Numbered from the stretch's first letter, positions 1-16,443 are shown. The stretch is 64,000 nucleotides of DNA from Candidatus Omnitrophota bacterium (GCA_030681595.1 JAUXSB010000055.1:64364-128363); one strand, 5' to 3'. The notes: generated from the letters alone by a model not told the origin. Numbers and translations: made by a program.

Positions 1-233
1 GTGTTATGTTTGATAAACCGGGCATTTTGGCAATGGCTAATGCCGGCCCCGGCACTAATGGAAGCCAGTTTTTTATTACCACCGTGCCGGCACCTTGGCT
101 TAATATGCATCATACTATTTTCGGAGAAGTGGTTTCCGGCTATGATGTAGTGCAAAAAATTGAGAACATCCCTGTTGATGCGGTAGGTAAGCCGGCTAAT
201 GAGCAGAAAATAATCAAGGCTTACTTAAAGTAA
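1..233 (+). CDS. Peptidyl-prolyl cis-trans isomerase (cyclophilin), C-terminal part; the 5' end lies upstream of the window
   Basis: Translation [17 protein letters not shown]...HTIFGEV matches the conserved cyclophilin C-terminal core. The frame is open to the window start. Confidence 0.8.
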
Positions 234-234
234 A

Positions 235-534
235 ATGTTCGCGCATTTGGTGTTATTTGAAATTGAGCCGAAACAAGTCCGGGCCTACCGTAAGGATTGT
301 AAAATGTGGGCAAGCTATGCCCGAAAGCATAAAGGTTTTTTGGAGTATTCTACAGTAAGGCGCCTAGAATATAAAAATCAGTTCGCTTCCGTATATGCAT
401 GGAAGTCCAAAAAAAATCATGATGCTTTTATGAACAAGCTTCATGATTGGCTGGTAAGTAAATCTAAAGCTAAAGTTAAAGTACTGGCTTATTATAATTT
501 TAATGCTATCGATAAAATATCGGCGGCTAAATAA
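235..534 (+). CDS. Small hypothetical protein, possibly an ABM/ferredoxin-like fold
   Basis: 99 aa ORF 1 nt after the cyclophilin stop. No diagnostic motif was recognised. Confidence 0.35.
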   Translation: MFAHLVLFEIEPKQVRAYRKDCKMWASYARKHKGFLEYSTVRRLEYKNQFASVYAWKSKKNHDAFMNKLHDWLVSKSKAKVKVLAYYNFNAIDKISAAK

Positions 535-662
535 GCAGTATCTTTTAGCCGTTATCGCGAAATAACTTGTTGTACCTGCGGTAGTTATATAAGCACGCCA
601 AATCGGTTAGGTATATCAGGCCGATTATCTATAAAAAAACCATAAAAGTTTAAAACGAGAAA

Positions 663-2489
663 ATGGAAAAATTTTCTTATACAGGGCTTTTTTTGTTTGA
701 TGGGCTTTCTTGTTTTTTCTTAGTAGTTATCGCGCTTGTTTCTATCCCTTCAGCGATATTCTCAATAGGATACCTGTCTCCTTGCGTCTCAAAAATAAAG
801 TTTTCGTTAGCGAACATCCTTCTGGTTTTCTTTGTTTTCTCTATGTCAATGGTAGTTACCTCGGGAAACCTTTTTTCTTTTCTTGTATTCTGGGAGTTAA
901 TGTCGCTTTCTTCATATTTTTTGGTAGTTTTTGAGCATACCCACCAAAGGTGTGTGCGCGCCGGGACAATTTATCTGGTAATGACGCATATGGGTACCGC
1001 GTTTCTTATCGCGGCATTTGCTATTCTTTATGTCCATGCTGGGTCATTTGATTTTGGCGCGGTGAAATTGGCGGTACTTAGCATGCCGCAGGATATGCGT
1101 AATATTGTATTTTTATTACTCTTTATTGGTTTTGGGACAAAGGCCGGAGTAGTTCCTTTGCACATCTGGCTTCCTTACGCGCATCCTGCAGCACCGGCTC
1201 ATGTTTCAAGTCTTATGTCCGGCGTTATGATAAAGATAGCTATTTATGGGATGATCCGTTTTTTTATTATGCTTTTAGGAGTGGGGCCGCCTTGGTGGGG
1301 AATCGTTATTTTAGTCTTTGGGGCTGCCTCTTGCCTTATCGGTGTTATCTATGCTCTAATGGATCACGATTTAAAAAAACTGCTTGCTTATCATAGCGTA
1401 GAGAATATCGGAATTATTCTTTTGGGTTTAGGCATAGCCATGGTTTTTAAAGGTTATCCAGTTACAACTATCGTATTGTTAGGTATGTCTGGCGCGCTTT
1501 ACCATTTAGTTAATCACGGGTTGTTTAAGGGGTTATTATTCCTTTGTTCCGGAAGCGTGGCCAAGGCATGTGGAACCCTTGACATAGAAAAAATGGGCGG
1601 CTTGATAAAATCAATGCCGGTAACCGCCGTATGTTTTCTTGTTGGGGCAATGGGTATTTCAGCGCTTCCACCTTTAAACGGATTTGTCAGCGAATGGCTC
1701 ACTTTTCAGGCATTTTTTGGCGCCTTACTTAGTTCGCAGGGAGGATTAAAGATTTTTATGCTTATCTGTGTCGCTGTCCTTGCTTTAACTAGCGGACTTG
1801 CCGCGGCTTGTTTTGTTAAGGCATTTGGCATAACATTTTTAGCCCTGCCGCGCAGCCGAGCCGCCCAAGAGGCAAAAGAATCATCGCTTTCGATGAAGGT
1901 GGGAATGGGAATCTTAGCGGTTTTGGTAGTTTTATTTGGTATAGGATGCGGTTTAATTATGCCCTATATTTGTCAAGTGGCGCAAGAAGTCTTAGGTATA
2001 GAGAACACACTGTTTTCTTTTAATTGGTTTTCGCTTTCTTTAGCCCCGATTTCACCTATATCTATTTCGCCCATTATTTTTGTGTTTATTTTAGCAGCGG
2101 TATCCTTAGTGTTATTGGCATGGTTTGTTTTATCACCCAGAAAAGCCGTGCCTTGTAATACTTGGGATTGCGGTTATTATGTATTGGGTGCGCGTAACGA
2201 ATATACGGCAACAGCATATTCAAAGCCTTTTCGGATTGCCTTTAGCTTTTTTTTATTGCCGTATCGCAAGGTTGAAAAGATCCGTGATTCGTTTTATCAT
2301 GTGCGTTCTTTTACTTACCAGACGCATACGACTAAAATATTTAAGCAGTACTTTTATGATCCGCTGGTCGGTTTTACTTACAATGTCGCGCATAAATTGC
2401 GGTGGTTGCAGCCGGGAAGCATAAATCTTTATATTTCATATATATTTATCGCACTTACAATATTAATTTTAGCATTAGTTATTTTATGA
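663..2489 (+). CDS. Group-4 hydrogenase / complex-I-like antiporter subunit (NuoL/MrpA/HyfB-like), 608 aa polytopic membrane protein
   Basis: Very hydrophobic. Carries NuoL/MrpA-family motifs (WLPYAHPAAPAHVSSLMSG, KLLAYHSVENIG). First gene of a tightly packed six-gene operon. Confidence 0.8.
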   Translation: MEKFSYTGLFLFDGLSCFFLVVIALVSIPSAIFSIGYLSPCVSKIKFSLANILLVFFVFSMSMVVTSGNLFSFLVFWELMSLSSYFLVVFEHTHQRCVRAGTIYLVMTHMGTAFLIAAFAILYVHAGSFDFGAVKLAVLSMPQDMRNIVFLLLFIGFGTKAGVVPLHIWLPYAHPAAPAHVSSLMSGVMIKIAIYGMIRFFIMLLGVGPPWWGIVILVFGAASCLIGVIYALMDHDLKKLLAYHSVENIGIILLGLGIAMVFKGYPVTTIVLLGMSGALYHLVNHGLFKGLLFLCSGSVAKACGTLDIEKMGGLIKSMPVTAVCFLVGAMGISALPPLNGFVSEWLTFQAFFGALLSSQGGLKIFMLICVAVLALTSGLAAACFVKAFGITFLALPRSRAAQEAKESSLSMKVGMGILAVLVVLFGIGCGLIMPYICQVAQEVLGIENTLFSFNWFSLSLAPISPISISPIIFVFILAAVSLVLLAWFVLSPRKAVPCNTWDCGYYVLGARNEYTATAYSKPFRIAFSFFLLPYRKVEKIRDSFYHVRSFTYQTHTTKIFKQYFYDPLVGFTYNVAHKLRWLQPGSINLYISYIFIALTILILALVIL

Positions 2490-3391
2490 TCGAAAAAACT
2501 TTTTTAATTATTATTCAGGCAGTTTTCTTGGTAATACTCGCTCCTTTGATAAGCGGTATAATCCACAAGCTAAAGAATAATCTACGCATGCGCAAGGGGG
2601 CAAGCGTGTTTCAGCCGTATTATAATTTTGTTAAGCTTATTGCTAAAGATGAGGTTATCTCGCGCAATACCTCTTGGATTTTTAGAGCTACTCCGGTAAT
2701 TGTCTTGGGCAGTGTCTTTTGTGTTTGTTTTTTACTGCCGGTTCTGCATAAAAGCTTTTTTTTAGGCCCGCTTGGAGATATGTTGGCAGTTATTTTTGTT
2801 TTTTCTTTGGGCCGTTTTTTTCTTGCGCTAGCTGCTCTTGATGCTGCAGGTTCGTTTGGCGGGATGGGCTCATCTCGTGAGGTATTTATTGCTAGTTTTG
2901 CTGAGCCGGCAACACTGGTTTCGATATTTGTTTTAGGCCTAAATTGCGGCTCGCTTTCGCCGTCTGCTGTCGCGTCATTAGAAGGGTGGCGTTTCTCTAG
3001 CTTGCTTTGCGGCTCAGCCCTTGGGATGGTAGCACTTGCCGAGACAGCGCGTATTCCGGTAGATAACCAGGAAACACACCTGGAATTAACCATGGTGCAT
3101 GAGGCAATGGTTTTAGAGTATTCAGGAAGATCTCTTGCGCTTCTGGAATTGGCAGCGCACATAAAACAGATTATTTTTTTTACGATTCTTTCCTGGGTTT
3201 TTTTCCCATGTCCGGTTAACGCCGTGTGGGGGTGGGCTTGGTTTATAATAAAACTTTGTATTATCAGCGTTTTTGTCGCGGTTACGGAAATTTCGCTGGC
3301 CAAGATGCGTTTATTCCGCGTATTGGATTATTTAGGGTTTGCTTTTTTGATTGCTATTCTTTCGGCAGTTTTCGCATTAATAGGAATGTAG
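2486..3391 (+). CDS. NuoH/HycD/HyfC-like membrane subunit
   Basis: ATG at 2486 overlaps the upstream stop (ATGA). About 300 aa polytopic protein of the complex-I H-subunit type. The track ORF 2402..3391 begins at an upstream alternative start. Confidence 0.75.
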   Translation: MIEKTFLIIIQAVFLVILAPLISGIIHKLKNNLRMRKGASVFQPYYNFVKLIAKDEVISRNTSWIFRATPVIVLGSVFCVCFLLPVLHKSFFLGPLGDMLAVIFVFSLGRFFLALAALDAAGSFGGMGSSREVFIASFAEPATLVSIFVLGLNCGSLSPSAVASLEGWRFSSLLCGSALGMVALAETARIPVDNQETHLELTMVHEAMVLEYSGRSLALLELAAHIKQIIFFTILSWVFFPCPVNAVWGWAWFIIKLCIISVFVAVTEISLAKMRLFRVLDYLGFAFLIAILSAVFALIGM

Positions 3392-3392
3392 T

Positions 3393-4037
3393 ATGCTAAC
3401 AATCATTTTTTTATCCGGTTTTTTACTTAGTTTATTTCTTATGGTGGTTGCCAAGCGGATTACCGCGCTGGTAAAGACGTTTGCCCTGCAGTCTTTATTT
3501 TTATCTTTGTATGCTTTATATGTCGCGGTTTTACAAAGGCATGCCGAGTTATTAATAATCTCTGGTTTAATCTTTATTTTAAAGGTAATAATTATACCGC
3601 GGGTAATATTAAGGATTAAGCGCAGAATTAATGTTGAAGAAGACCTAGGCCTTACGCTTAATACGCAGGTTTCATTGATTGTAGCACTTTTTTTAATGTA
3701 TTTTTCTTATTTGTTTATTAGCCGCATTATTTCTTTTAGTTCTGGTGAGGCCATGCAGGCGGTTGCGTTTACGGTTTCGTTTACCGCGGTTTTTATCGGG
3801 CTTTTTTTGATGATTTTTAGGCAAAAGGCCTTAAGCCAGGTAGTAGGGCTTTTAGTGATGGAGAACGGCACTTTTCTTGCCGCTCTGGCGATTACAGGCG
3901 GGATGCCGTTTCTTGTGGAGATCGCGATTTTCTTTGATGTTTTTATTTTTGTTTTGATTATTGAAATTTTGGTCTATAGGATTAACCGGCTTTTTACGCA
4001 TATTGATACTACGAAATTAACTACGCTTAAAGGATAA
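3393..4037 (+). CDS. HyfE-like (doubled NuoK-like) small membrane subunit
   Basis: 214 aa, entirely hydrophobic. Its size and operon position fit the hydrogenase-4 E component. Confidence 0.55.
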   Translation: MLTIIFLSGFLLSLFLMVVAKRITALVKTFALQSLFLSLYALYVAVLQRHAELLIISGLIFILKVIIIPRVILRIKRRINVEEDLGLTLNTQVSLIVALFLMYFSYLFISRIISFSSGEAMQAVAFTVSFTAVFIGLFLMIFRQKALSQVVGLLVMENGTFLAALAITGGMPFLVEIAIFFDVFIFVLIIEILVYRINRLFTHIDTTKLTTLKG

Positions 4038-4040
4038 ATT

Positions 4041-5582
4041 ATGTTTATTTTGGTAATACTTTTTATCCCGTTTGCCTTAAGTATTATTTCTTTATTCACC
4101 CCGTTAGAGAAAGTTGCTGACGGTGGTTTAAAGCTTTTATTGAGGCAATCCGTTAAGGATGGGGGTTCTCTAACGGGGTTCATAAAAAAAGAACGCCTGT
4201 TTGGTATTATAAATGCTTTTGGGTACGCGATAGTTTTGGGAATATCTCTATTGCTTACCGCGCGTATTCTTACGCCGCCTTATGTTATCAGGCAATTCGG
4301 GATATTTTATATTGATGCCTTAAGCGCCTTTTTTATGCTTATCACCGCGATAATTGCATTTAGCGCGAGTATTTATTCTATCGGGTATATTTCAAACGAA
4401 ATAGAAGAGGCTAAGATTAGTTTTCATAACACCAAGGTTTATTATTGCCTATTCAATCTTTTTTGTTTTTCGATGTTATTAGCGCCCATGCTTAATAATT
4501 TGGCTTTGGTTTGGATTGTTATTGAAATGACGACACTTATTTCAGCTTTCCTTGTTGGTTTTCATAATGTTAAGGAATCTATTGAGGCGGCTTGGAAATA
4601 TGTTATTATCTGTTCCGTGGGGATTACTTTTGCTCTTTTAGGGATTATCTTTTTTTATTATACCGCTTCAAAAGACGCGCATGTTACGAGTTTACACTGG
4701 TTGAAAATGTATGAAGCCGCGCGGTTTTTTAATCCGCATACGGTTAAAATCGCGCTTATTTTTATTTTTGTCGGTTATGGCACAAAGGCAGGTTTGGCGC
4801 CTATGCATAGCTGGCTTCCGGACGCGCATAGCCAAGCGCTTTCTCCGGTGAGCGGGCTTTTATCAGGGGTATTACTCAAGATATCATTATACGCTATCTT
4901 GCGTTTTGTGATTTTAGCGATTCCTTCTTTGGGTTACGCGTTTAGCGCGCAATTGTTTATTTTATTTGGGCTATGTTCTCTTTTTGTCTCCGCGGGATTT
5001 ATCCTGGTACAGAAGGACCTAAAGCGTTTACTTGCTTACAGCAGTATTGAGCATATAGGCCTCGTGAGTATTGCTTTTGGTTTAGGGCCTGTTGCGGGAA
5101 TTTATGCCGGATTATTACATATTTTTAACCACGCTGTAACCAAGGCGTTTATGTTTTTCTGCGCCGGAGATACAGTTAAGGCGTATCGTACGAATAATAT
5201 GAATTTAATGCAAGGTATGTTTAAGATAGCGCCCTTTACCGCGGGCGCTTTACTTCTGGGGGTCTTTGCTTTAACCGGCTCACCGCCATTTTCTATATTT
5301 ATTAGTAAAATTTTAATTATTTTGGCCGCTTTCGGGGGCAAGAGGTATGCTATTGCCGCGGTTATGCTTTTATTGTTGGCGGTAGTTTTCGCCGGGTTAT
5401 TACAGCACATAACGAAGATTGTCTTTGGTAATAAACCGCAAAATATGATTAAAATAAAAGAGCCGTTAAGCACAAAGGCTGCCGTTTTGTTTTTAGCAAT
5501 TTTTATCGTGTGGTTTGGCATGAAAGTGCCGGTTTGGTTTAGCGGCCTTTTGTCGGCCTGCGGAAAAATTATTTCTGGTTAA
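4041..5582 (+). CDS. NuoN/NuoM/HyfF-like antiporter subunit
   Basis: 513 aa with motifs WLPDAHSQALSPVSGLLSG and KRLLAYSSIEHIG typical of the complex-I antiporter-like family. Confidence 0.8.
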   Translation: MFILVILFIPFALSIISLFTPLEKVADGGLKLLLRQSVKDGGSLTGFIKKERLFGIINAFGYAIVLGISLLLTARILTPPYVIRQFGIFYIDALSAFFMLITAIIAFSASIYSIGYISNEIEEAKISFHNTKVYYCLFNLFCFSMLLAPMLNNLALVWIVIEMTTLISAFLVGFHNVKESIEAAWKYVIICSVGITFALLGIIFFYYTASKDAHVTSLHWLKMYEAARFFNPHTVKIALIFIFVGYGTKAGLAPMHSWLPDAHSQALSPVSGLLSGVLLKISLYAILRFVILAIPSLGYAFSAQLFILFGLCSLFVSAGFILVQKDLKRLLAYSSIEHIGLVSIAFGLGPVAGIYAGLLHIFNHAVTKAFMFFCAGDTVKAYRTNNMNLMQGMFKIAPFTAGALLLGVFALTGSPPFSIFISKILIILAAFGGKRYAIAAVMLLLLAVVFAGLLQHITKIVFGNKPQNMIKIKEPLSTKAAVLFLAIFIVWFGMKVPVWFSGLLSACGKIISG

Positions 5583-5595
5583 GAATAGGATAATT

Positions 5596-7191
5596 ATGCT
5601 GCGTATAGAAGAAGAACTTAAAAGCCAAAAAATAGAAATTATTGAAAGTGAGCGTATCCATTCGGATGAGCTTTATCTTACGGTAAATAAAGAAGATTTT
5701 AAAACGGCTTGCCTTAGCCTGCATAAGTTGCTTAAGTCTGCGGTCATAATGTTTTTTGCCGAGGATATGCGCGCGCAATCAAAGGTTTTTAGGATTTATT
5801 GTGTTTTTTTGGATACGCAAAATCATTCTTGGGTGGTAGTACGGACAGATTTAAGTGAAGATGCGCTGTTATTTAGTTCTCTGGCAAAAGATATCTATTC
5901 TGCCAGTATTTTTGAGCGCGAGATAAAAGAGATGTTTGGAATTATGCCGCAAGGCTGCCCTGATTTAAGGCGCTTGCGCCTGCATGACGAAGTTTGGCCG
6001 GAGGGTTTTTATCCTTTGCGTAAAGATAGTGTTTTGCCGAAGATATGCGCGTTTCTCGGCTCTTATCAATTTAGGCGCGTAGAGGGTAACGGGGTGTTTG
6101 AGGTTGGCGTGGGGCCGGTGCATGCCGGAATTATTGGCCCGGGGCATTTTCGTTTTAGCGTGGTAGGAGAGCCGATTATCAATCTTGAGCTGCGTTTGGG
6201 CTGGACACATCGCGGGATAGAAAAATTATTGGAAGGAAAAGATATTTTTGCGGGAGTTAAAATTTTTGAATGTATAAGCGGCGATACGGCTTTTGGATAT
6301 TCTAGTGCTTATTGTCAGGCAATAGAAAAAATATTAAAAGTAAATATTCCTTTGCGCGCGCAATACCTACGGGTGATATTCTTGGAGTTTGAACGGATAT
6401 ATAACCATATTAATAGCCTCGGAGGGATTGCCCTTGATGTAGGTTTTAGTTTTCCGGCGCAATTTGCCAGCCTTATAAAAGAACGCCTTTTACAATTGCA
6501 TGAGCGGATTAGCGGCTCTCGTTATTTAAAAGGGATTAATACTGTGGGTGGTGTTCAAGTTGATATTGAAGATAATAAAGCGGAAATTATACGTAAATCC
6601 ATTTTTGGTATCCAAAAAGATATTTTAGAGCTTGAAAAAATGCTTTATTCCAGCACTTCTTTTATGGATCGCGTGGATTCTACGGGAATTTTACGTAAAA
6701 AAACAGCGCAGGACTTAGGCGTTACGGGCCTTGCCGCCCGCTCAAGCGGGATAGCGTTGGATATGCGTAAGGTTTTTGGAGGTATTTATGAAAAATTCAC
6801 GTTTAATATTATTGCAGAGCAAGCCGGCGATGTCTGTTCTCGCATGAAGGTGCGTTTTTGGGAAATAAAAGAATCATTGGGCCTGATTAATCAGGGCCTT
6901 GAAAAACTTAAAAGTGTAGTGGGCACCTCTGGAGTGGCCGGAGGTCTCCCCGGAGGTGGCGAAGCACGGTCGCTTGATGGTGTTGGTATTGGCTGCGTTG
7001 AGGCATGGCGGGGAATGTTGCGCGTATGGTGCCGGATAGATAAAGAAGGCAGGATTATCCGTTGTAAGATAGTTGACCCTTCGTTCCATAATTGGGAAGG
7101 GCTTAGTTTCGCGGCATTGGGCAATATCATCCCGGATTTTCCTTTATGTAATAAAAGTTTTGACCTTTCGTATGCAGGTAATGACCTATGA
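5596..7191 (+). CDS. Fused NuoC-NuoD / HycE-like 'large subunit' lacking the Ni-Fe cysteine ligands (Ehr-like)
   Basis: N-terminal NuoC-like domain. GPVHAGIIGPGHFRF and HRGIEKL motifs of NuoD/HycE are present. C-terminus reads DPSFHNW where NiFe large subunits have DPCxxCxxH. There is no CxxC after the HRGxEK motif. Confidence 0.8.
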   Translation: MLRIEEELKSQKIEIIESERIHSDELYLTVNKEDFKTACLSLHKLLKSAVIMFFAEDMRAQSKVFRIYCVFLDTQNHSWVVVRTDLSEDALLFSSLAKDIYSASIFEREIKEMFGIMPQGCPDLRRLRLHDEVWPEGFYPLRKDSVLPKICAFLGSYQFRRVEGNGVFEVGVGPVHAGIIGPGHFRFSVVGEPIINLELRLGWTHRGIEKLLEGKDIFAGVKIFECISGDTAFGYSSAYCQAIEKILKVNIPLRAQYLRVIFLEFERIYNHINSLGGIALDVGFSFPAQFASLIKERLLQLHERISGSRYLKGINTVGGVQVDIEDNKAEIIRKSIFGIQKDILELEKMLYSSTSFMDRVDSTGILRKKTAQDLGVTGLAARSSGIALDMRKVFGGIYEKFTFNIIAEQAGDVCSRMKVRFWEIKESLGLINQGLEKLKSVVGTSGVAGGLPGGGEARSLDGVGIGCVEAWRGMLRVWCRIDKEGRIIRCKIVDPSFHNWEGLSFAALGNIIPDFPLCNKSFDLSYAGNDL

Positions 7192-7712
7192 GCTTAAATA
7201 TTTTTAAAAATAGCCTAAGAAAAGGGAGAGTTACTGTTTCTCTTGATAAGGCTGCTTTTATCAGGCCAGCGGAAATTAACGAAATTGGCGAAGAGTTAAA
7301 GCGCTTGATCCATAAAAAATTCGCCCGCTCGTTTCATATCCGCGAAGTTGATACTGCCTCTTGTGGCGCTTGTGAATCGGAAATAATCGCCTGCTCTAAT
7401 CCTTTTTATGATATTCAGCGTTTTGGGATTGATTTTGTCGCTTCTCCCCGTCATGCCGATGCCTTGCTTGTAACTGGCCCGGTTTCAAAGAATATGGAGC
7501 TTGCGCTTAAGAAAACCTATGAGGCAGTGCCGGAGCCGAAATTTGTTATTGCCATGGGTGATTGCGCCAAAGGAGGCGCTCAATTCAGCGATTCGTATTA
7601 TACCTGCGGAGGGGTAGAAAATATCCTGCCTGTGTCTTTACATATTCCGGGATGTCCGCCTAATCCAACACAAATTATTTTTTGCTTGTTAGATTTTCTG
7701 GATAAAATTTAA
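7188..7712 (+). CDS. NuoB/HycG-like small subunit ([4Fe-4S] N2-type)
   Basis: Cys motifs CGAC, GDCAKGG and PGCPP match the NuoB/hydrogenase small-subunit signature. ATG overlaps the upstream stop. Confidence 0.85.
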   Translation: MSLNIFKNSLRKGRVTVSLDKAAFIRPAEINEIGEELKRLIHKKFARSFHIREVDTASCGACESEIIACSNPFYDIQRFGIDFVASPRHADALLVTGPVSKNMELALKKTYEAVPEPKFVIAMGDCAKGGAQFSDSYYTCGGVENILPVSLHIPGCPPNPTQIIFCLLDFLDKI

Positions 7713-7738
7713 TAAAAAAATAAAATAAAATTTATAGT

Positions 7739-7775
7739 CTTGACAAAAGAAATGCTTGTTGTATAATATATTTCG
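7739..7775 (+). promoter_or_regulatory. Near-consensus sigma70 promoter (TTGACA, 17 bp spacer, TATAAT) upstream of the ArsR-family gene
   Basis: cTTGACAaaagaaatgcttgttgTATAATat lies about 35 bp upstream of the ATG at 7809. Confidence 0.55.
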
Positions 7776-7808
7776 TTATATCCGAATATTGAGGAATAAG
7801 GAAATAAT

Positions 7809-8138
7809 ATGGAAGAATTGGCCTATAAGATAAAAGCGGATTTTTTAAAGACATTAGCCCATCCGGTGCGGCTTCAGATTGTTGAATTTTTAAAGAATGG
7901 CGAGAAGAATGCAGGAGCTATAGTTAAAACTCTCGGCATACCTCAATCTAGTCTTTCCCGGCACCTGTTGGTTTTAAGAGAAGGCGGTATTTTAAAATCA
8001 AGGCAACAGGGCACAGCTATTTATTACAATATTGAAGACCACGATATCTTTCAGGTGTTGCGGCCGATAGCGGAAATGCTGCGTAAGAAGCTTAAAAGAA
8101 CAGAGGTAGTCTTAAGTAGTTTAGGCAAGGAAAAGTAG
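7809..8138 (+). CDS. ArsR/SmtB-family metalloregulator (winged HTH)
   Basis: LAHPVRLQIVEFL...SQSSLSRHLLVLREGGIL is the classic ArsR HTH signature. Confidence 0.8.
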   Translation: MEELAYKIKADFLKTLAHPVRLQIVEFLKNGEKNAGAIVKTLGIPQSSLSRHLLVLREGGILKSRQQGTAIYYNIEDHDIFQVLRPIAEMLRKKLKRTEVVLSSLGKEK

Positions 8139-8402
8139 GTTTTCAAAAAGAAGGAGAGGCAAAATAGAGAAAACAGCAGAAATGTCGGGTCTTGGTGTTT
8201 TTTGGAGGCAGTTTTGAATTCTCGATCGAAACAAGAGCTAACAATAGCTTTCATATAAATTTTAAAACTCTCTTTAATGGGCCTCATACTTTTAGTTATC
8301 ATTTATAGTATTTCCCGCCAAGACCTACCATAATCATTCATCTCAAAACTAAAGCTAAAGAATAGCCTTTATTGAAAGCCATATTAAGGAGCTAAGTTTT
8401 TT

Positions 8403-8669
8403 ATGGGGGCCAATAAATCTTTGTTTCTCGAAGAAAGAATAAAAATTATTATTGCTAGCGCGTTGTGTGTAGAAAAAGATAAGGTTAAAAATGACGCTCT
8501 ACTGGATAAAGATTTAGGGGTGGATTATTTAGATAAGGCGGTCATCAAAATGGATTTAGAGGATGCATTTAAAATTGCCATTTCGGATAAAGATATAGCC
8601 GATAAAAATAAGGTTTCAGAGATTATGGATTATATAAAGAAAAGGACAGATGCTTCAGTTTCAAGGTAG
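8403..8669 (+). CDS. Small acidic protein with an ACP-like helical signature but Tyr in place of the phosphopantetheine Ser
   Basis: DLGVDYLDKAVIKMDLEDAF resembles the ACP motif DLGADSLD..E.EF with Ser replaced by Tyr. Weak. Confidence 0.3.
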   Translation: MGANKSLFLEERIKIIIASALCVEKDKVKNDALLDKDLGVDYLDKAVIKMDLEDAFKIAISDKDIADKNKVSEIMDYIKKRTDASVSR

Positions 8670-9051
8670 GAATATAACCAGCGAATTTGATTTGTTGAAG
8701 GTAAAGGTTCAGGCAATCGATTTTATTAAACCCATCAAATTCGAGAAAGCAGACCTCGAGAAATTAGCAGATTTAGTGTTTGAATTAGCTAAAGAGTTAA
8801 TTTTCAATCAGGTTGATGCCTACATCTGCTTAAACTGCTATAAACTGGAGCGCAAAATTGGCTTAGAGGTGTATGTGTATAACAAAAATATGTCTCTAGA
8901 AAAAGCGCAAGAAGCTTTAAATAATAACTATAATTTAAGCAAAAAGGGTATCTTCTTAAACAAAAATTCAGGATTTTTAGATAAATTTGAGTTAAAGAAA
9001 GAAGCAAAATCAGGCATTGAAATCAATATTCTTAAATGGTCAAAATTATAG
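8650..9051 (+). CDS. Hypothetical protein
   Basis: 133 aa ORF in the AT-rich islet. No motif recognised. Start uncertain. Confidence 0.3.
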   Translation: MLQFQGRNITSEFDLLKVKVQAIDFIKPIKFEKADLEKLADLVFELAKELIFNQVDAYICLNCYKLERKIGLEVYVYNKNMSLEKAQEALNNNYNLSKKGIFLNKNSGFLDKFELKKEAKSGIEINILKWSKL

Positions 9052-9111
9052 AAGAACCTAGAAGCCACAAGAAAAAATCAGGACAGGTAACTTTTGAAGG
9101 CGATAATAAAA

Positions 9112-9612
9112 ATGTTTAAAGTAGGCGATAAAATAATCCATAATTTTTACGGCCTTTGTGAGATTGCCGCAATCGAAATGCAAGATACCTATTACGGCAA
9201 GCAGGAATGTTACATTATCTATATGGATAAAACTAAAATAATGATCCCTGTTTCTCATTCTGAGATGTTGCGGTACCCAATAGGAAAGGAAGAAATCCCC
9301 GGAGTACTTGATAGGCTCAGCAATACTAATAATTTGCCAGAAGAACTACCTTCTGAAGAGCGCATCAGACTCTTTTTAGAGAAATTCAAGACCAATGATA
9401 TCGTAAAAATCTCCGAGATACTTAGAGATATTGTATTTTTAGGCGAAACGGATAAGTTAAAAACGCAGGAGAAGAATTTGCGTGAGCGAATTAATAAACT
9501 ATTATCGGATGAATTATCTTTTGTTCAAAACATTACCAAGGCGGAGGTTTTAAAAACTATTGATAATTGTCTGAGGAAGGTGAAGGAGAGCGCGAAATGC
9601 CGCAGAAAATAA
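9112..9612 (+). CDS. CarD/CdnL-family RNA-polymerase-binding transcription factor
   Basis: N-terminus MFKVGDKIIHNFYGLCEI matches the CarD_CdnL_TRCF RNAP-interacting domain (MFKVGDxVVYPxHG). The track ORF begins at an upstream TTG. Confidence 0.6.
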   Translation: MFKVGDKIIHNFYGLCEIAAIEMQDTYYGKQECYIIYMDKTKIMIPVSHSEMLRYPIGKEEIPGVLDRLSNTNNLPEELPSEERIRLFLEKFKTNDIVKISEILRDIVFLGETDKLKTQEKNLRERINKLLSDELSFVQNITKAEVLKTIDNCLRKVKESAKCRRK

Positions 9613-9827
9613 AATTAAGAGTAGGGGATACCATAGATTACGGTAATGGCAGAAAAGGTCAGATTGGAAAAATTAGAATAATTTCCAGCGGTAAGTTTGT
9701 CGAAGAATACGAATACGACGGTGACGGCCACGATTTAGTATTAACCGTGTGTGGTGATAGGAGCGTGACTAACCTTTGGGTTAAAGATACGCGCATCCAT
9801 ATAGTGCCGGCAGAAAAAAAGAGGTAA
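9597..9827 (+). CDS. Small hypothetical protein
   Basis: ORF with an internal ATG start MPQKIKLRVGD. No motif recognised. Confidence 0.3.
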   Translation: MPQKIKLRVGDTIDYGNGRKGQIGKIRIISSGKFVEEYEYDGDGHDLVLTVCGDRSVTNLWVKDTRIHIVPAEKKR

Positions 9828-9830
9828 GGC

Positions 9831-10094
9831 ATGTCTGCTTTTATACGGACTATTCAGGGAAAAATTTTTGGTATAGACCATAATAAGAAACTTTTTTCTT
9901 TGGCTATAGAAGAGATTTTGAGTGGAATAGCCCAGAAGAAGATAGATTTCTTGCTGGATCCCAACGTCAGGATTACAGATGTGGCTAATCAGCAAATGAA
10001 ACTCGTGGCTTTGAACGCGGACGATAAAGTAGAAGTCGGCTATATAAGGGATAAATCCCAAAGAACCGCCTTATTTATTAAGGTTATAGGTTAA
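9831..10094 (+). CDS. Small hypothetical protein
   Basis: 87 aa ORF tightly packed between its neighbours. Confidence 0.3.
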   Translation: MSAFIRTIQGKIFGIDHNKKLFSLAIEEILSGIAQKKIDFLLDPNVRITDVANQQMKLVALNADDKVEVGYIRDKSQRTALFIKVIG

Positions 10095-10099
10095 TATTT

Positions 10100-11011
10100 A
10101 TGGAAACCTTTGATTTGGGAATTGCCTGGGATAATGAATCAGATAATGAGTTTGTTAACGACCTCAATGCTTACGTTCTCAAAAAAGGGATAAAGCCGTA
10201 TCTGATCCATGTCTATAATTTCCTTTCTTCCTTAAAAGATATTACTGATAGCCAGCTAACTTTTCATTGTTTTTTTGACCGTTCTTCGGATGACAGTTAT
10301 ACTTTCGGTGGACTGGCAGATTTTCTTAAGAAAAAAGGCATCAATTTTATTAATCATCTCGATAATGTAAAAAATTCTATAGATAAATTTAAAATACATT
10401 CTATGTTTATAAGCCATGGTTTGTCTGTTCCTAAAACGGTTTTTTTAAAACCTCAAGAGGAAAAACAAATCATAGAGGCAAAGATTCAGCATGTTTCTGT
10501 CCCGTATATGCTTAAGCCGGCATTTGGTTCTTATGGTGATGGCACAGTTTTGAGTATTAATTCTTTAAATGACGCTTTGAGGTTAGTGGGGGACGCAAAA
10601 GATAAGTCTTATTTTGCACAAGAAGAAGTTATAGCCATAAATCTGGAGAATAAACCCGCATGGTTTAAGGTTTTATATTGTTTTGGGGAGATAATTCTTT
10701 TACGATGGCATCCGGTGATTCGAGAGTACGAGATGCTTTCCTTAAGGCAAATATATCGTTTAGGATTACATGAAATTTGGCCGATAACGAAGAAAATCAA
10801 GCAGGCATGCAAATTGGATTTTTTCTCCACAGATATAGCTATGAAAGAAAAGGGGAAATTTCTGGTCGTTGACTACGTAAATGATAGGCCGGATATGCGT
10901 AAAAAGTCAAAATTCAAAGATGTTTTACCTGATGAAATAGTTGATAAGATCATTAATAGCATTGTGTCTTTTATAAAAACTAATAAAAAAAGATGGTTCG
11001 CAGAGCGTTAG
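10100..11011 (+). CDS. Hypothetical protein, possibly ATP-grasp fold
   Basis: MLKPAFGSYGDGTVL resembles the ATP-grasp Gly-rich loop. Otherwise unassigned. Confidence 0.35.
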   Translation: METFDLGIAWDNESDNEFVNDLNAYVLKKGIKPYLIHVYNFLSSLKDITDSQLTFHCFFDRSSDDSYTFGGLADFLKKKGINFINHLDNVKNSIDKFKIHSMFISHGLSVPKTVFLKPQEEKQIIEAKIQHVSVPYMLKPAFGSYGDGTVLSINSLNDALRLVGDAKDKSYFAQEEVIAINLENKPAWFKVLYCFGEIILLRWHPVIREYEMLSLRQIYRLGLHEIWPITKKIKQACKLDFFSTDIAMKEKGKFLVVDYVNDRPDMRKKSKFKDVLPDEIVDKIINSIVSFIKTNKKRWFAER

Positions 11012-11219
11012 AGGCAAAAGTAGCAAAGGAGTTACTCTTTTAAGCTAAATCTCGAATCACCAACGCTCGCATTGAAGATACAAGCGTTAAGGCGCTTGGG
11101 TTTTCTAATATTAAGCCATGTAATAGAGCGGCCATAGATTACGTAAAAGAAAGTAGTGGCAAGTTAATTGCCTCTGATATTATTGTAATATCTAAATCAC
11201 AGAGAGGAGGTGAGAGGGG

Positions 11220-11591
11220 ATGGTTAAAATAATAAAGCTCGCGCTAGTGTGTTTAGCAGTGGTCGGGTTGGTAGGAGTGGCTGTGCCGGTCTATGCTCAA
11301 GGAGCGGCAGGACAGGAGGCTATCTTGGTTTCAGGCGAAGTGGTTTCAGTGGGTTTGGTGAAATCTGAAGTTGTGATTAAACAGCTTAAAGATGCAGTTA
11401 CCAGCACTTACGAAAATATTACTTTTGTGACAGCGCCTGAAACGAAAATTATCAAAGGCGATGCTGCCTTGAAGCTTTCTGATTTGAAGGCGGGGGATAA
11501 AGTTAGCGTTAAATATATCTCTGATGAATCAGGGAAACAAAAGGTAGGGAGTATCTCGTTAGAAGTTGAAGAAACAGCACTAGCTAAATAA
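11220..11591 (+). CDS. Small secreted protein (signal peptide)
   Basis: N-terminal MVKIIKLALVCLAVVGLVGVAVPVYAQG is a signal peptide. Good RBS gagaggagg. Followed by a 15 bp perfect-stem hairpin at 11601..11639. Confidence 0.45.
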   Translation: MVKIIKLALVCLAVVGLVGVAVPVYAQGAAGQEAILVSGEVVSVGLVKSEVVIKQLKDAVTSTYENITFVTAPETKIIKGDAALKLSDLKAGDKVSVKYISDESGKQKVGSISLEVEETALAK

Positions 11592-11915
11592 GCAATCAAA
11601 ATAGCGGCGGTTAATTATCGCTATATTAACCGCCGCTATTACAAAAAAGTAAGTTAAATTACGAGTGAAAGAAGGTGATTGAAATGGTAAGAAAGAAGAA
11701 AGTTCCGATTACGCCAGTGGCACCACAGAAGACCGAAAACCAACCCACACAGACCCCTCAAGCTCCATCTGGAGGTCAGTCTTCTATTCCTCAGGCACCA
11801 TCCACTCCCCAGAAAGCTTAAATGATGGGGTATTCTAAGTATGGGATGGCTAAAGTTAGAGACTTGTGCTGTCCTATGATTTATTTTTTATTTTAGAGAA
11901 AGGATAAAGTTAAGT

Positions 11916-12407
11916 ATGACAAAGGGGATCAAACACAGTGATATAAAACTGCCAGATTTACTCAAGGAAAAATACATTGAACTGGATTTGAAGGAAAAAG
12001 AAAAAACTAAGTTAATTGCTGAATTAGTAGATATAGTTGTTAAGCCTAGCCGAATAAAGGACGGGAAAGTTCTGTCTAAAGCTATTTTAGAACGAGAGAA
12101 ATTAGGCTCTACTGCTATCGGAAATGGCATAGCCATACCCCATGTTAAAATTAGAGGGATTAAGAAACCGTTGCTTATTTTAGGTAAGTCAGCTGAAGGT
12201 GTAGATTTTGATTCTTTGGACGGAGAGAAGACTTACCTATTTTTTATGCTTATTTCACCACAAAAAGAAATTGGCCTGCATCTTAAAATCTTAGCTAAGA
12301 TTTCGCATTTAGTAAAAGATAAATTTGTAGTAGAGCGCTTAAAAAAGATAAAGGAGAAACACGAAATTTTTGAGATAATTTCTGGTTTTGAGCGATTTTT
12401 TAAATAA
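11916..12407 (+). CDS. ptsN: PTS EIIA(Ntr)/fructose-type regulatory protein (PtsN-like)
   Basis: GNGIAIPHVKI with the active-site His and a LILGKS..GVDF region typical of PTS_EIIA_2. Confidence 0.7.
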   Translation: MTKGIKHSDIKLPDLLKEKYIELDLKEKEKTKLIAELVDIVVKPSRIKDGKVLSKAILEREKLGSTAIGNGIAIPHVKIRGIKKPLLILGKSAEGVDFDSLDGEKTYLFFMLISPQKEIGLHLKILAKISHLVKDKFVVERLKKIKEKHEIFEIISGFERFFK

Positions 12408-12428
12408 AAAATGTGGGAGGTGGTAAAT

Positions 12429-12878
12429 ATGAAAGTAGGTATAAGTTTAGAGAATGAGAATGGATTATATAGTAATGTTTGCAAGCATTTTCAAGAGAGC
12501 AGCCATTTTTTTATTTTAGATATTGATAAAAATAAAATTGTCAGTAGTAGGGTTGTTCCGAATCATGTTCGGCATAATGGCAAAGAATATATAGTGGCCG
12601 ATGAGGTATTAAAATATAGAATTACCCATCTGATCGCAGATAATGTGGGGGTGGCTGCGCAGAAAAGATTCGTACAAACCAATGTTCAGGTATTTAAATA
12701 TTCAGGCAACGTAAAAGATGCCATTGATAATTTTTTTAAAAAAAATATGGGGCTTGCGCTTAAGAAAACCTATGAGGCAATGCCGGAGCCGAAATTCGTT
12801 ATTGCCACGGGCGATTGCGCCAAAGGGGGCGCTCAGGCGGACAATTTAGCGATTCGTATTATACCTGCGGAGGGGTAG
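12429..12878 (+). CDS. NifX/NifB-type dinitrogenase FeMo-cofactor-binding domain protein whose 3' end is fused in frame to a decayed copy of the hydrogenase small-subunit C-terminus
   Basis: MKVGISLENENGLYSNVCKHFQESSHFFILDID matches the NifX-like domain. From about 12744 the sequence is a near-copy of 7491..7712. Confidence 0.5.
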   Translation: MKVGISLENENGLYSNVCKHFQESSHFFILDIDKNKIVSSRVVPNHVRHNGKEYIVADEVLKYRITHLIADNVGVAAQKRFVQTNVQVFKYSGNVKDAIDNFFKKNMGLALKKTYEAMPEPKFVIATGDCAKGGAQADNLAIRIIPAEG

Positions 12879-12973
12879 AAAATATCCTGCCTGTGTCTTT
12901 ACATATTTCGGGATGTCCGCCTAATCCAACACAAATTATTTTTTGCTTGTTAGATTTTCTGCATAAAGCATAG
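12744..12973 (+). pseudogene. Degenerate duplicate of the 3' end of the NuoB/HycG-like gene; direct repeat of 7491..7712 with an 8 nt insertion that shifts the frame
   Basis: About 90% nucleotide identity to 7491..7712 by eye across ~225 bp. After the frameshift the other frame reads YYTCGGVENILPVSLHISGCPPNPTQIIFCLLDFL. Confidence 0.75.
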
Positions 12974-13089
12974 TCTCTAAGTAGAAAAAAGTCAATAAAA
13001 AGAGGAATTAGGCTATTTACATCTGGTTTGGATTGCGATAGTATTATTTCGCTTGAAGCAATAGGGAATTATGTCAGATTTTTCGGCTG

Positions 13090-16432: not shown

Positions 16433-16443
16433 AATAAGTTAAA

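Follow-up and report, generated by a model that had tools for sequence, protein, structure and literature searches.

A probable Ehr-type, hydrogenase-related membrane complex in an uncultured Omnitrophota bacterium

Ehr complexes ("energy-converting / Ech hydrogenase-related") have been reported in Geobacter (PMC7894505), Nitrospira (PMC10284858, PMC12342949) and Saganbacteria (PMC6349859), and the name has also been used for complexes of Margulisbacteria (PMC6349859). Description of the family is credited to Coppi and to Marreiros et al. These complexes lack the CxxC motifs, are close to group 4f and have no known function (PMC10284858, PMC12342949), and a link between a redox reaction in the cytoplasm and charge translocation is suspected (PMC6349859). 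Their shared features, documented in PMC6349859, PMC7894505, PMC10284858 and PMC12342949 for Geobacter sulfurreducens (GSU0739-45), Nitrospira, Saganbacteria, Margulisbacteria and Melainabacteria, are a large subunit without CxxC Ni-Fe motifs in which NuoC is fused to NuoD, a NuoB-like small subunit, and HyfB-, HyfE-, HyfF- and NuoH-like membrane subunits. All of these features likewise occur in an operon of an uncultured Omnitrophota bacterium. A literature search found no paper describing an Ehr-type complex in Omnitrophota; the operon is a further member of an already described family of unsolved function, not a new kind of complex.

The six genes are tightly packed on the + strand (663-7712) of a 64-kb stretch of DNA, here called the window (Table 1). 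Adjacent genes overlap by 4 nt or are separated by 1-13 nt, and the start of the HycD-like gene at 2486, an ATGA overlap with the preceding stop, matches the public gene call. Based on Pfam and NCBIfam profiles, the products were assigned, from 5′ to 3′, as HyfB/NuoL-like, HycD/NuoH-like, HyfE-like, HyfF/NuoN-like, fused NuoC-NuoD/HycE-like and NuoB/HycG-like proteins. Gene calls and profiles thus bear out the first-pass annotation, which had described a six-gene operon with a hydrogenase-like membrane module and a NuoB-like subunit. In other Omnitrophota MAGs, these six genes likewise stand as a unit of their own, and the genes that flank them are unrelated. An Omnitrophota MAG protein that bears the name "NADH-quinone oxidoreductase subunit C" at NCBI matches the large subunit with 100% identity.

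Table 1. Features of the operon and its flanking DNA (positions counted from the first nucleotide of the window)
Feature	Position	Strand	Evidence
Intergenic region 5′ of operon, presumed promoter/operator	535-662	+	128-nt gap after ABM-like gene
HyfB/HycC/NuoL-like antiporter-type membrane subunit, 608 aa	663-2489	+	Pfam Proton_antipo_M 4.2e-60
HycD/NuoH-like membrane subunit, 301 aa	2486-3391	+	Pfam NADHdh 3.7e-34
HyfE-like membrane subunit, 214 aa, NuoK-like C-terminal half	3393-4037	+	NCBIfam hydrogenase 4 membrane subunit 1.2e-24
HyfF/NuoN(M)-like antiporter-type membrane subunit, 513 aa	4041-5582	+	NCBIfam hydrogenase 4 subunit F 447 bits
Fused NuoC-NuoD/HycE-like large subunit without Ni-Fe ligands, EhrL-type, 531 aa	5596-7191	+	Pfam Complex1_30kDa and Complex1_49kDa
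L1-equivalent ECISGDTAFGYS, residues 225-236, ligand positions S228 and T231	6268-6303	+	HycE alignment
L2-equivalent FDLSYAGNDL, residues 522-531, ligand positions S525 and G528	7159-7188	+	HycE alignment
NuoB/HycG/MbhJ-like small subunit, EhrS-type, 174 aa, one [4Fe-4S] site	7188-7712	+	Pfam Oxidored_q6 1.2e-27
arsR own promoter, TTGACA-16-TATAAT, 12/12 matches	7740-7767	+	Sequence match
ArsR/SmtB-family regulator gene	7809-8138	+	Pfam HTH_20/HTH_5; NCBIfam HTH_metalloreg 79.5 bits

The large subunit matches Complex1_49kDa (7.3e-40) and NiFeSe_Hases (7.2e-07) in Pfam and is related to E. coli HycE (7z0s_E; phmmer E = 8.8e-57); its AlphaFold2 model (pLDDT 91.3) resembles the same chain with a TM of 0.91 and an rmsd of 2.1 Å. 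In the phmmer alignment, RVCGICGFAHS of HycE (L1) lies opposite CISGDTAFGYS, the cysteines being replaced by S228 and T231, and DPCYSCT (L2) lies opposite the C-terminal DLSYAGN, with replacement by S525 and G528. The first-pass annotation had allowed for at most one of the four Ni-Fe-ligating cysteines and had placed L2 at DPSFHNW. The loss was correctly recognized, but the count is zero of four; C226 precedes the first ligand position by two residues and corresponds to no ligand. Likewise, DPSFHNW (residues 494-500) aligns with AATYANW of HycE and the true L2 equivalent is at the C-terminus, yet the conclusion that the catalytic subunit has lost its Ni-Fe site survives this misplacement. The protein stops three residues past L2, with no C-terminal maturation extension.

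The residues that took the place of these motifs are widely shared. Among Cys-less representatives (n of about 113), G229 was present in 107, D230 in 99 and E225 in 97, and, in L2, S525 and Y526 each in 102, G528 in 104 and D530 in 112. The Ni-Fe cysteines were likewise replaced at both L2 positions in all 120 closest homologues and were missing from about 112 of 150 family representatives, and the large subunit has 37 invariant columns across phyla. Strong conservation of the replacement motifs indicates that the pocket is under selection rather than decaying.

The NuoB-like subunit matches MbhJ (2e-34) and HycG (2.4e-33), and its C59 and C62 (CGAC), C126 (GDC) and C156 (GCPP) align with the cluster ligands of both proteins, in agreement with the intact cluster proposed earlier. 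No complete Omnitrophota homologue lacks any of these four residues. Together with the fused NuoC-NuoD-like protein, the NuoB-like subunit makes up a peripheral arm of two proteins, and its single [4Fe-4S] cluster is the only predicted redox cofactor of the complex. The subunit has no NuoI-like domain and no cysteine in its N-terminal 58 residues, and no NuoI/HycF-like gene was found in the operon, nor a stand-alone one in the window: matches to CxxCxxCxxxC in six frames of the 64 kb occurred only inside NuoF-like and FdhA-like genes at 48-53 kb. Motif search and ORF scan of the 64 kb thus agree with the first-pass annotation on the missing NuoI/HycF-like gene, which was also absent from the operon in three further Omnitrophota MAGs. 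In addition, no hyp or hycI family was detected in the scanned ORFs of the window (at least 120 aa and a few shorter ones). Patterns for hyp signatures gave two loose matches among six-frame segments of at least 50 aa, neither in a hyp-like gene, and hyp genes were likewise not detected in the 2.7 kb upstream of the window. Nearby hyp genes together with a NuoI-like gene had been named as a finding that would speak against the earlier reading, and neither was found in the window.

These observations bear on the possibility that the complex is an active, H2-producing [NiFe]-hydrogenase of group 4 (Hyf / formate hydrogenlyase-2 type). The architecture and the best family matches are those of hydrogenase-4 and FHL subunits, and homologues are named 'Ni,Fe-hydrogenase III large subunit' and 'formate hydrogenase HycE' at JGI. 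However, all four metal-ligating cysteines are replaced, the C-terminal processing extension and a HycF-like subunit are missing, no hyp or protease genes were detected in the window, true hydrogenases with the CCCC signature form a separate clade in a neighbor-joining (NJ) tree without support values, and H2 did not raise Ehr expression in Nitrospira moscoviensis (PMC12342949); an active hydrogenase is extremely unlikely. A reduced respiratory complex I (NADH:quinone oxidoreductase) is implied by the NCBI name of the identical protein and by Pfam/NCBIfam matches to the NuoB, NuoC, NuoD, NuoH and NuoL/M/N families, but this too we regard as very improbable. The large subunit is far below all NCBIfam Nuo equivalog cut-offs (NuoD 223.7 vs 360), NuoH scores 46.7 against a cut-off of 305, and the broad NuoB subfamily model alone passes (124.5 vs 116). 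The Nqo4 quinone-head ligands His38 and Tyr87 align, ungapped, to I180 and G229 (T. thermophilus 2fug_4), the NuoB-like subunit has the hydrogenase-type CxxC and not the CC pair of complex I, and FHL chains are the best matches by both structure and sequence. Furthermore, the operon has no NuoI and no NuoE/F/G, and the NuoE- and NuoF-like genes, at a distance of 40 kb, form a set with the gene of a formate dehydrogenase alpha subunit. Most likely, the complex neither makes nor uses H2 and is not an NADH:quinone oxidoreductase. We are highly confident that it is of the Ehr type and not a hydrogenase; loss of all four Ni-Fe cysteines, the retained NuoB-like cluster, the Hyf-type membrane module and the missing NuoI/HycF gene uphold the Ehr-type reading of the first-pass annotation.

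The same core operon was found in 83 further loci from many phyla. Of the 70 Cys-less loci in which the NuoB-like gene is complete, 39 had a short form of it and neither a NuoI-like domain nor a NuoI-like gene; absence of NuoI is therefore the commonest state in the sampled family and not peculiar to the Omnitrophota locus. The NuoI-like part was also missing in loci of Nitrospirota, Rokubacteria and Actinobacteria, and the recovered Nitrospirota and Saganbacteria loci had gene order and motifs in common with the Omnitrophota locus. In an NJ tree of large subunits, which has no support values and is indicative only, the window protein fell within an Omnitrophota/Saganbacteria clade of Cys-less sequences. 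It clustered with Cys-less Nitrospira and Saganbacteria/Margulisbacteria sequences, lineages whose complexes are called Ehr in the literature. The seven CCCC loci (true hydrogenases) formed one clade; six had either a 4Fe-4S motif of the NuoI type or a distinct ferredoxin gene, and the seventh (L063) had an N-terminal extension of equal length. In this tree, the window protein is placed among Cys-less sequences and apart from the CCCC clade.

The HyfB-like subunit (NCBIfam hydrogenase 4 subunit B, 637 bits; best solved relative HycC 7z0s_C, 6.9e-74) keeps the canonical charged residues E78, K160, K191, H285/K289 and E344. The best solved relative of the HycD-like subunit is HycD (7z0s_D, 4.7e-31). 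Residues 126-214 of the HyfE-like subunit match Pfam Oxidored_q2, and the protein has two membrane-embedded glutamates, E157 and E176. The HyfF-like subunit contains a Proton_antipo_M domain (Pfam), and its alignment with MbhH and MbsH showed that E162, K249, K280, H364/K368 and K423 are kept. The four membrane subunits retain the charged residues with which complex I, Mbh and Mrp translocate ions.

Our best overall explanation, held with modest confidence, is an Ehr-type complex acting as a single-cluster, redox-coupled ion translocator; the redox-coupled mechanism, taken by itself, is more tentative. A low-potential donor (reduced ferredoxin or a docking dehydrogenase) would pass electrons straight to the NuoB-like cluster, which may be more exposed as NuoI is missing. 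Electrons would then reach a small acceptor in the remodeled large-subunit pocket, the site of Ni-Fe in hydrogenases and of quinone in complex I, with walls presumably formed by the conserved SGD[ST] and LSYxGxDL motifs. The resulting charge change could be transmitted via the HycD-like and HyfE-like subunits, so that the two antiporter-like subunits would move H+ or Na+ through the membrane, and the process could also run in reverse.

It would be unusual for a redox pump to operate with one cluster and no further redox site, and this counts against the mechanism. So does the finding that in none of the 84 loci was a gene for a donor, an acceptor or a partner linked to the operon. Moreover, the NuoB-like cluster cysteines were lost in seven of the 39 NuoI-less loci (CPR bacteria, Thermoleophilia, Bdellovibrionales and Methanosarcina), in which the large-subunit SGD.. 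and LSYxGxDL motifs persist, and this suggests that the core function of the family may not need electron transfer. The complex might accordingly be a non-redox ion transporter, either a cation/proton antiporter of the Mrp kind or a machine that uses an ion gradient to act on a bound ligand, a reading that we consider rather unlikely. It has in its favor a graded loss of redox cofactors (Ni-Fe in all Cys-less members, NuoI in many, cluster ligands in some), intact antiporter residues, the lack of a syntenic electron-donor gene and, as sole recurrent neighbor, an ArsR-family regulator rather than a redox partner. The peripheral arm would then be a structural plug, a sensor or a gate, with the [4Fe-4S] cluster serving, if anything, to sense redox state or oxygen; this is equally a minority possibility. 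However, retention of all four cluster ligands in every complete Omnitrophota homologue argues for a selected cofactor, conservation of the large subunit goes far beyond what a plug would need, and Mrp antiporters work without a peripheral arm.

A further reading is that the complex is the membrane arm of a formate-oxidizing 'FDH-Ehr', in which NuoE-NuoF-FdhA (47985-52982) would dock and feed in electrons from formate. Such a complex was proposed for Margulisbacteria and Saganbacteria on the same gene co-occurrence (PMC6349859), and Geobacter Ehr subunits were more abundant on formate (PMC7894505). The window encodes NuoE-like and NuoF-like proteins and FdhA (TIGR01591, 880 bits vs cut-off of 666), as well as MoeA and MobB-like proteins, and the scaffold derives from formate hydrogenlyase. 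On the other hand, 40 kb of DNA with about 35 unrelated genes separate the two gene sets, and homologues of FdhA, NuoE and NuoF were within 10 kb of the operon in none of the 84 loci. NuoEF-FdhA alone is a complete soluble NAD-linked enzyme, a HycB/HycF-like connector is missing and no acceptor is known. Docking of this enzyme is thus improbable.

The product of the ArsR/SmtB-family gene is a possible regulator of the operon. The region upstream of the operon contains GAAATAACTTGTTGTA...GTTATAT, of which the 9-mer CTTGTTGTA (566-574) and adjacent words recur in the promoter region of arsR, and an inverted repeat, AATCGG-N14-CCGATT, is present at 601-626. An ArsR-family gene adjoins the homologous operon in 14 other loci and, likewise, in M. 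tuberculosis (rv0081; PMC6901956).

Compared to known Ehr complexes, the Omnitrophota operon differs from that of Margulisbacteria, in which one fused gene encodes the NuoB-like part and a NuoI homologue (PMC6349859), in having no NuoI-like part. Among solved structures, E. coli formate hydrogenlyase-1 (PDB 7Z0S) is the closest relative for four subunits (HycC, HycD, HycE and HycG), and the HyfB, HyfE and HyfF families of E. coli hydrogenase-4 are the best NCBIfam matches. Unlike FHL/Hyf, the Omnitrophota complex has no [NiFe] site and no HycF (2x[4Fe-4S]), HycB or FdhF, and, unlike FHL, it has no C-terminal maturation peptide and no Hyp/HycI genes nearby. The nearest sequences with all four cysteines (Thermincola, Desulfotomaculum, Selenomonas and Ectobacillus; 36-39% identical) share the order HyfB-NuoH-HyfE-HyfF-CD-NuoB, but they keep CGxC ... 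CxxC, form their own clade and mostly have a NuoI-like motif or ferredoxin gene. They are putative group 4f [NiFe]-hydrogenases, a label taken from a literature statement (PMC10284858).

In Mbs/Mbx (membrane-bound sulfane sulfur reductase) of Pyrococcus, which is likewise related to complex I, the large subunit no longer binds Ni-Fe. The 13 subunits of Mbs include NuoI-like MbsN and an Mrp-type module, and substrate reduction presumably takes place at the proximal [4Fe-4S] cluster or close to it. The electron sink of Mbs/Mbx is sulfur, not protons (PMC8165549). Membership of the Omnitrophota complex in this group was considered and rejected, with MbsL (1.2e-26, vs 8.8e-57 for HycE) and MbsJ (2e-16) matching far more weakly than FHL chains and with six genes that include neither a NuoI-like subunit nor an Mrp-type module; the 'Mbx/Mbs-like' comparison of the first-pass annotation is thus a poor one. 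Mbs/Mbx is a useful mechanistic analogy, not the same family.

In M. tuberculosis, rv0081-rv0087 is a 'predicted formate hydrogenlyase' in which the regulator rv0081 precedes and controls six structural genes, annotated as oxidoreductase, oxidoreductase, hycD, hycP, hycQ and hycE (PMC6901956). Likened by annotation, rv0082-rv0087 are of the same six-gene kind as the Omnitrophota operon. The order in actinobacterial loci (ArsR, NuoB-like, HyfB-like, NuoH-like, HyfE-like, HyfF-like, CD) equals the annotated M. tuberculosis order; the NuoB-like gene is first there and last in Omnitrophota, and the ArsR-family gene, which precedes the operon in M. tuberculosis, lies downstream with its own promoter in Omnitrophota. 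The large subunit is 38% identical to that of Nonomuraea (L073), and its S-T-S-G signature is present in 120 of 120 actinobacterial homologues, including Mycobacterium sp.

The six genes of the operon are tightly packed: genes 1 and 2 overlap by 4 nt, as do genes 5 and 6, and the three junctions between them are gaps of 1, 3 and 13 nt, in this order. The start of gene 2 listed in the table produces the ATGA overlap and agrees with the public gene call for the contig; a GTG at 2402 proposed by the ORF finder was dropped. The window belongs to a Candidatus Omnitrophota MAG, and its large subunit is 100% identical to a protein that NCBI lists as 'NADH-quinone oxidoreductase subunit C'. The 2.7 kb 5′ of the window contain genes for a sigma-70 factor, a LacI-type binding protein, a phosphoribosyltransferase, a PPIase and an ABM-domain protein.

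Features of the operon, the remainder of the window and homologous loci in other genomes
Locus	Feature	Position	Strand	Evidence or content
Window	Operon upstream region	558-591		Words shared with arsR promoter
Window	Six-gene operon	663-7712	+
Window	Gene 1, HyfB/NuoL-like		+	Proton_antipo_M 4.2e-60; hydrogenase-4 subunit B 637 bits
Window	Gene 2, NuoH/HycD-like	start 2486	+	NADHdh 3.7e-34
Window	Gene 3, HyfE-like		+	Hydrogenase-4 membrane subunit 1.2e-24
Window	Gene 4, HyfF/NuoN-like		+	447 bits (family scan)
Window	Gene 5, large subunit	5596-7191	+	Complex1_30kDa and Complex1_49kDa fusion (NuoC-NuoD, as in HycE)
Window	Gene 6, NuoB-like small subunit	7188-7712	+	Oxidored_q6 1.2e-27
Window	3′ third of nuoB-like gene	7487-7712		Duplicated
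Window	arsR promoter	7740-7767		TTGACA-16-TATAAT
Window	ArsR-family gene	7809-8138
Window	NifX/NifB-C-like (Nitro_FeMo-Co) ORF	12411-12878		Partial Oxidored_q6 match
Window	Copy of nuoB-like end	12740-12975		88-93% identity
Window	Glycogen-type cluster	13473-19514		HTH-CBM48 glycogen-binding fusion, GT4/GT5 glycosyltransferase, DUF4912, GH57 branching enzyme, second GH57
Window	Flavoprotein, DedA/VTT and ArsS-type group	21014-24253		ArsS-type: TIGR04167, 403 bits, 'arsenosugar biosynthesis'
Window	Probable toxin-antitoxin or defence genes	29857-30456, 34125-35755, 56286-58857, 60544-62958
Window	Haem catalase	31729-33162		Pfam Catalase 7e-188
Window	NuoE-NuoF-FdhA genes	47985-52982		FdhA: TIGR01591, 880 bits
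Window	Formate dehydrogenase gene set	47985-55184		NuoE-like, NuoF-like with extra ferredoxin domain, FdhA, MobB-like, chromate-transporter family, MoeA
Window	Response regulator-hemerythrin fusion	55440-56222
L038	Cluster-less NuoB-like gene	4263-4850
L044	Cluster-less NuoB-like gene	4355-4909
L072	Cluster-less NuoB-like gene	4280-4798
L053	Cluster-less NuoB-like gene	4269-4874
L070	Cluster-less NuoB-like gene	4193-4753
L067	Cluster-less NuoB-like gene	11631-12143
L083	Cluster-less NuoB-like gene	11749-12264
L032	Paired Ehr-type operons	4823-19892
L055	Paired Ehr-type operons	62-15708
L003	Second group-4-like cluster	15678-19578		Omnitrophota MAG

The large subunit has lost the Ni-Fe site. 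In a phmmer alignment with E. coli HycE (7z0s_E, E = 8.8e-57), L1 of HycE, RVCGICGFAHS, is paired with CISGDTAFGYS and L2, DPCYSCT, with the C-terminal DLSYAGN, and the ligand columns are therefore occupied by S228, T231, S525 and G528. With none of the four cysteines kept, the loss proposed in the first-pass annotation was borne out; L2 had been misplaced, as DPSFHNW (residues 494-500) aligns with the non-ligand stretch AATYANW of HycE, which does not affect the conclusion. C226 lies two residues upstream of the first ligand column and is common only in close Omnitrophota homologues (88 of 121). The protein stops three residues past the L2 equivalent and hence carries no C-terminal maturation peptide. 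It also lacks the complex I quinone ligands: His38 and Tyr87 of T. thermophilus Nqo4 correspond to I180 and G229 in an ungapped alignment. Hydrogenase and complex I readings of the operon are effectively excluded. An AlphaFold2 model computed from an alignment of 40 sequences was confident (pLDDT 91.3, pTM 0.93), and its best solved match was HycE (TM 0.91, rmsd 2.1 Å, 525 columns), indicating that the predicted fold is intact and not degenerate.

The NuoB-like small subunit matched MbhJ (2e-34) and HycG (2.4e-33), and in alignment its C59 and C62 (CGAC), C126 (GDC) and C156 (GCPP) fall on the [4Fe-4S] ligands of both, confirming the intact cluster described earlier. The CxxC spacing is of the hydrogenase type, in contrast to the CC pair of complex I, and residues 1-58 contain no cysteine. 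The reported absence of a NuoI/HycF gene from the operon also held. A CxxCxxCxxxC regex run on six frames of the whole 64-kb window matched only within the NuoF-like and FdhA-like genes at 48-53 kb, and Pfam scans of window ORFs of at least 120 aa, plus a few shorter ones, revealed no hyp, hycI or stand-alone ferredoxin genes. Hyp signature regexes gave two loose pattern matches in the window, neither within a hyp-like gene.

Searching 1.84 billion representative proteins in full with HMMER yielded 828 matches below 1e-30. Among the best 150 of these, 21 had all four Ni-Fe cysteines and approximately 112 were Cys-less. In the Cys-less representatives of this best-150 set (~113), L1 reads [S/A/C]-G-D-[S/T/E/N], with G229 in 107 and D230 in 99, and L2 reads L-S-Y-x-G-x-D-L, with S525 and Y526 in 102 each, G528 in 104 and D530 in 112. 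Most invariant residues outside the ligand columns were common to Cys-less and Cys-containing groups, and a search for further specificity-determining positions between the two found, beyond these columns, only position 495 (Pro versus Ala). The S-T-S-G signature of the window protein occurred in all 120 actinobacterial homologues examined, among them Mycobacterium sp. and proteins annotated as 'formate hydrogenase HycE'.

We also scanned one genome per species, which gave 594 relatives, and fetched 80 loci from Omnitrophota, Saganbacteria, Nitrospirota, Acidobacteriota, Rokubacteria/Methylomirabilota, Actinobacteria, Chloroflexi, Firmicutes, CPR/Patescibacteria, Thaumarchaeota, Methanosarcina and Methanomassiliicoccales. 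Actinobacteria with Ehr-type operons include Mycobacterium. The core order HyfB-NuoH-HyfE-HyfF-CD, where CD is the fused large subunit, was constant wherever a contig spanned the whole operon. Large subunits were Cys-less in 77 of 84 loci; the seven with all four cysteines (CCCC loci: Thermincola, Desulfotomaculum, Peptococcaceae, Selenomonas, Anaerovibrio, a Negativicutes MAG and Ectobacillus) formed a single clade in a neighbour-joining tree. Paired Ehr-type operons lie close together in one Nitrospirota genome and one Fibrobacteria MAG. An Omnitrophota MAG (L003) has a different second group-4-like cluster 7 kb 3′ of its Ehr operon, composed of a ferredoxin subunit and NuoH-, NuoB- and NuoC-like subunits, with Fer4_22 and DHODB-type genes 5′.

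The membrane arm appears functional. In it, the HyfF-like subunit retains E162, K249, K280, H364/K368 and K423 (aligned with MbhH and MbsH), and the HyfB-like subunit retains E78, K160, K191, H285/K289 and E344 (aligned with HycC); two membrane glutamates, E157 and E176, occur in the HyfE-like subunit. Residues of these classes move protons or sodium in complex I, Mbh and Mrp structures. Their retention, judged from alignments, is consistent with ion movement rather than proof of it. The complex has an FHL-like scaffold from which Ni-Fe ligands, quinone ligands and NuoI are absent, and in which one [4Fe-4S] site, ion-translocation residues and replacement pocket motifs are conserved. We tentatively view it as a redox-coupled ion translocator, a reading that is possible but short of probable. 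A low-potential donor would reduce the NuoB-like cluster directly, and this cluster would then reduce a small acceptor in the remodelled pocket.

Distribution of Fe-S clusters was assessed in the 70 Cys-less loci whose NuoB-like gene is complete. In 32, the NuoB-like protein was short (about 160-225 aa), had four cluster cysteines and lacked any NuoI-like part; its gene lay at the 3′ end of the operon in 20 (all Omnitrophota, Saganbacteria and Nitrospirota) and at the 5′ end in 12 (Rokubacteria, Actinobacteria, Binatia and Chloroflexi). Long N-terminal extensions were present in 19 (Acidobacteria, Verrucomicrobia and Thaumarchaeota); of five examined with Pfam, three had weak or partial ferredoxin-type matches and two none. 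An N-terminal 2x[4Fe-4S] NuoI-like fusion was seen in 8 (Firmicutes, Vicinamibacteria and Methanogranum) and a separate small ferredoxin gene in 3, including locus L016, which the automatic tally had placed among the 3′-end short forms. The single remaining locus (L010, Saganbacteria) has a short four-cysteine gene at the operon 3′ end and a stand-alone 2x[4Fe-4S] ferredoxin gene 2.5 kb 3′, outside the operon. Six of the seven CCCC loci, the true hydrogenases of the set, had a NuoI-like 4Fe-4S motif or separate ferredoxin gene, and in the seventh (L063) the N-terminal extension was equally long. The window therefore truly lacks NuoI, but this state is typical of its branch. Together with its relatives, the window locus shows a minimal Ehr form, with one Fe-S cluster and without NuoI, to be common, and much of the family can do without NuoI.

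In the other 7 of the 70, three or all four [4Fe-4S] cysteines of a short NuoB-like protein were replaced. These loci belong to three CPR bacteria, a Thermoleophilia MAG, a Bdellovibrionales MAG and two Methanosarcina, and, as predicted from their genes, their complexes would contain zero redox cofactors. The SGD.. and LSYxGxDL motifs of the large subunit persist in all seven. That relatives without even the NuoB-like cysteines still keep the pocket motifs favors the main rival explanation, a non-redox antiporter or ligand-coupled machine whose cluster would be a sensor at most; we consider it somewhat unlikely. Across the family, redox cofactors were lost stepwise, first Ni-Fe, then the NuoI clusters and last the NuoB-like cluster (CPR bacteria, Methanosarcina and others), while the SGD[ST] and LSYxGxDL motifs and antiporter residues were conserved throughout. 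This pattern suggests that Ehr, including the NuoI-less Omnitrophota form, could couple an ion gradient to the binding or conversion of a small non-redox ligand, or alternatively be a peripheral-arm-gated antiporter. Such a complex-I-type machine whose core job is other than electron transfer is, in our judgment, unlikely; if it exists, the single cluster in the window would serve only as a redox or oxygen sensor. The family-wide loss is a more interesting lead than the single locus.

A formate dehydrogenase comprising FdhA and NuoE/NuoF has been hypothesised as an Ehr partner (PMC6349859). The NAD-linked formate dehydrogenase genes of the window match this proposed set but lie 40 kb from the operon, and this co-occurrence is the sole observation in favor of an FDH-Ehr complex. 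The synteny test was negative, as no FdhA, NuoE or NuoF homologue was found within 10 kb of the operon in any of 84 loci; we regard this complex as possible but quite improbable. In three other Omnitrophota MAGs, unrelated genes flank the six-gene set.

The only recurrent neighbor was an ArsR-family regulator, which adjoins the operon in 14 other loci and lies directly 3′ of it in the window. The promoter 5′ of the arsR-family gene matches the sigma-70 consensus at 12/12 positions. This promoter region and the operon upstream region share CTTGTTGTA and flanking GAAAT and GTTATAT words, which may represent a candidate common operator; the 9-mer alone has a chance expectation of about 1 in 10, and the shared operator is therefore only a lead.

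A second copy of the 3′ third of the nuoB-like gene lies 5.25 kb further 3′. The copy has its frame broken by an 8-nt insertion, and its first 31 codons are fused in frame with the end of the NifX/NifB-C-like ORF, which explains the partial Oxidored_q6 match of the latter. This ORF was considered as a partner because of the weak match and rejected, since the matching part is a frame-broken duplicate and not a functional domain. The copy is either a local duplication relic or an assembly artefact.

The + strand carries all credible genes in the window (1-64000), and each 2-kb bin shows positive GC skew; the whole window probably belongs to a single leading-strand replichore. Genes for a MerA/dihydrolipoamide-dehydrogenase-like flavoprotein, a DedA/VTT membrane protein and an ArsS-type radical SAM protein are grouped. 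The catalase and hemerythrin genes encode oxygen-related functions; the host lineage is usually described as anaerobic. The defence-type set comprises a Zeta-toxin-like kinase, an IrrE/M78 peptidase with DUF4411, nucleotidyltransferase-domain proteins and a Schlafen-type helicase-S24 peptidase fusion.

The operon is an Omnitrophota member, in the common NuoI-less form, of the known, widespread and functionally unsolved Ehr family. The first-pass assignment to Ehr is supported; its comparison with Mbx/Mbs is loose. The practical value of the finding is in annotation. Homologues carry database names such as 'Ni,Fe-hydrogenase III large subunit' and 'formate hydrogenase HycE', and it would be an error for a metabolic reconstruction to treat the operon as complex I or as an H2-evolving hydrogenase. 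In Omnitrophota, PF00346 was the model by which one survey scored complex I (PMC10066038); the large subunit matches PF00346 and would therefore be counted.

To our knowledge, Ehr is one of few large branches of the complex I superfamily without a known substrate. Our literature search found no description of Ehr in Omnitrophota, and the window locus extends the list of Ehr-bearing lineages to this phylum. The name came from Geobacter work (Coppi et al. 2004, as cited in PMC7894505); its general use dates from Marreiros et al. 2013 (as cited in PMC4758237). [quoted passage not shown] In Nitrospira, Ehr is placed near group 4f hydrogenases, has no CxxC motifs, is of unknown function and was not induced by H2 (PMC10284858, PMC12342949); it is found in about half of Nitrospirales genomes (PMC12342949). 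Geobacter Ehr subunits were more abundant on formate (PMC7894505). The gene order in actinobacterial loci (ArsR, NuoB-like, HyfB, NuoH, HyfE, HyfF, CD) is that of M. tuberculosis rv0081 and rv0082-rv0087, an operon under the control of rv0081 (PMC6901956). Mbs uses sulfur as an electron sink (PMC8165549), and the mechanism proposed here for Ehr would be loosely analogous.
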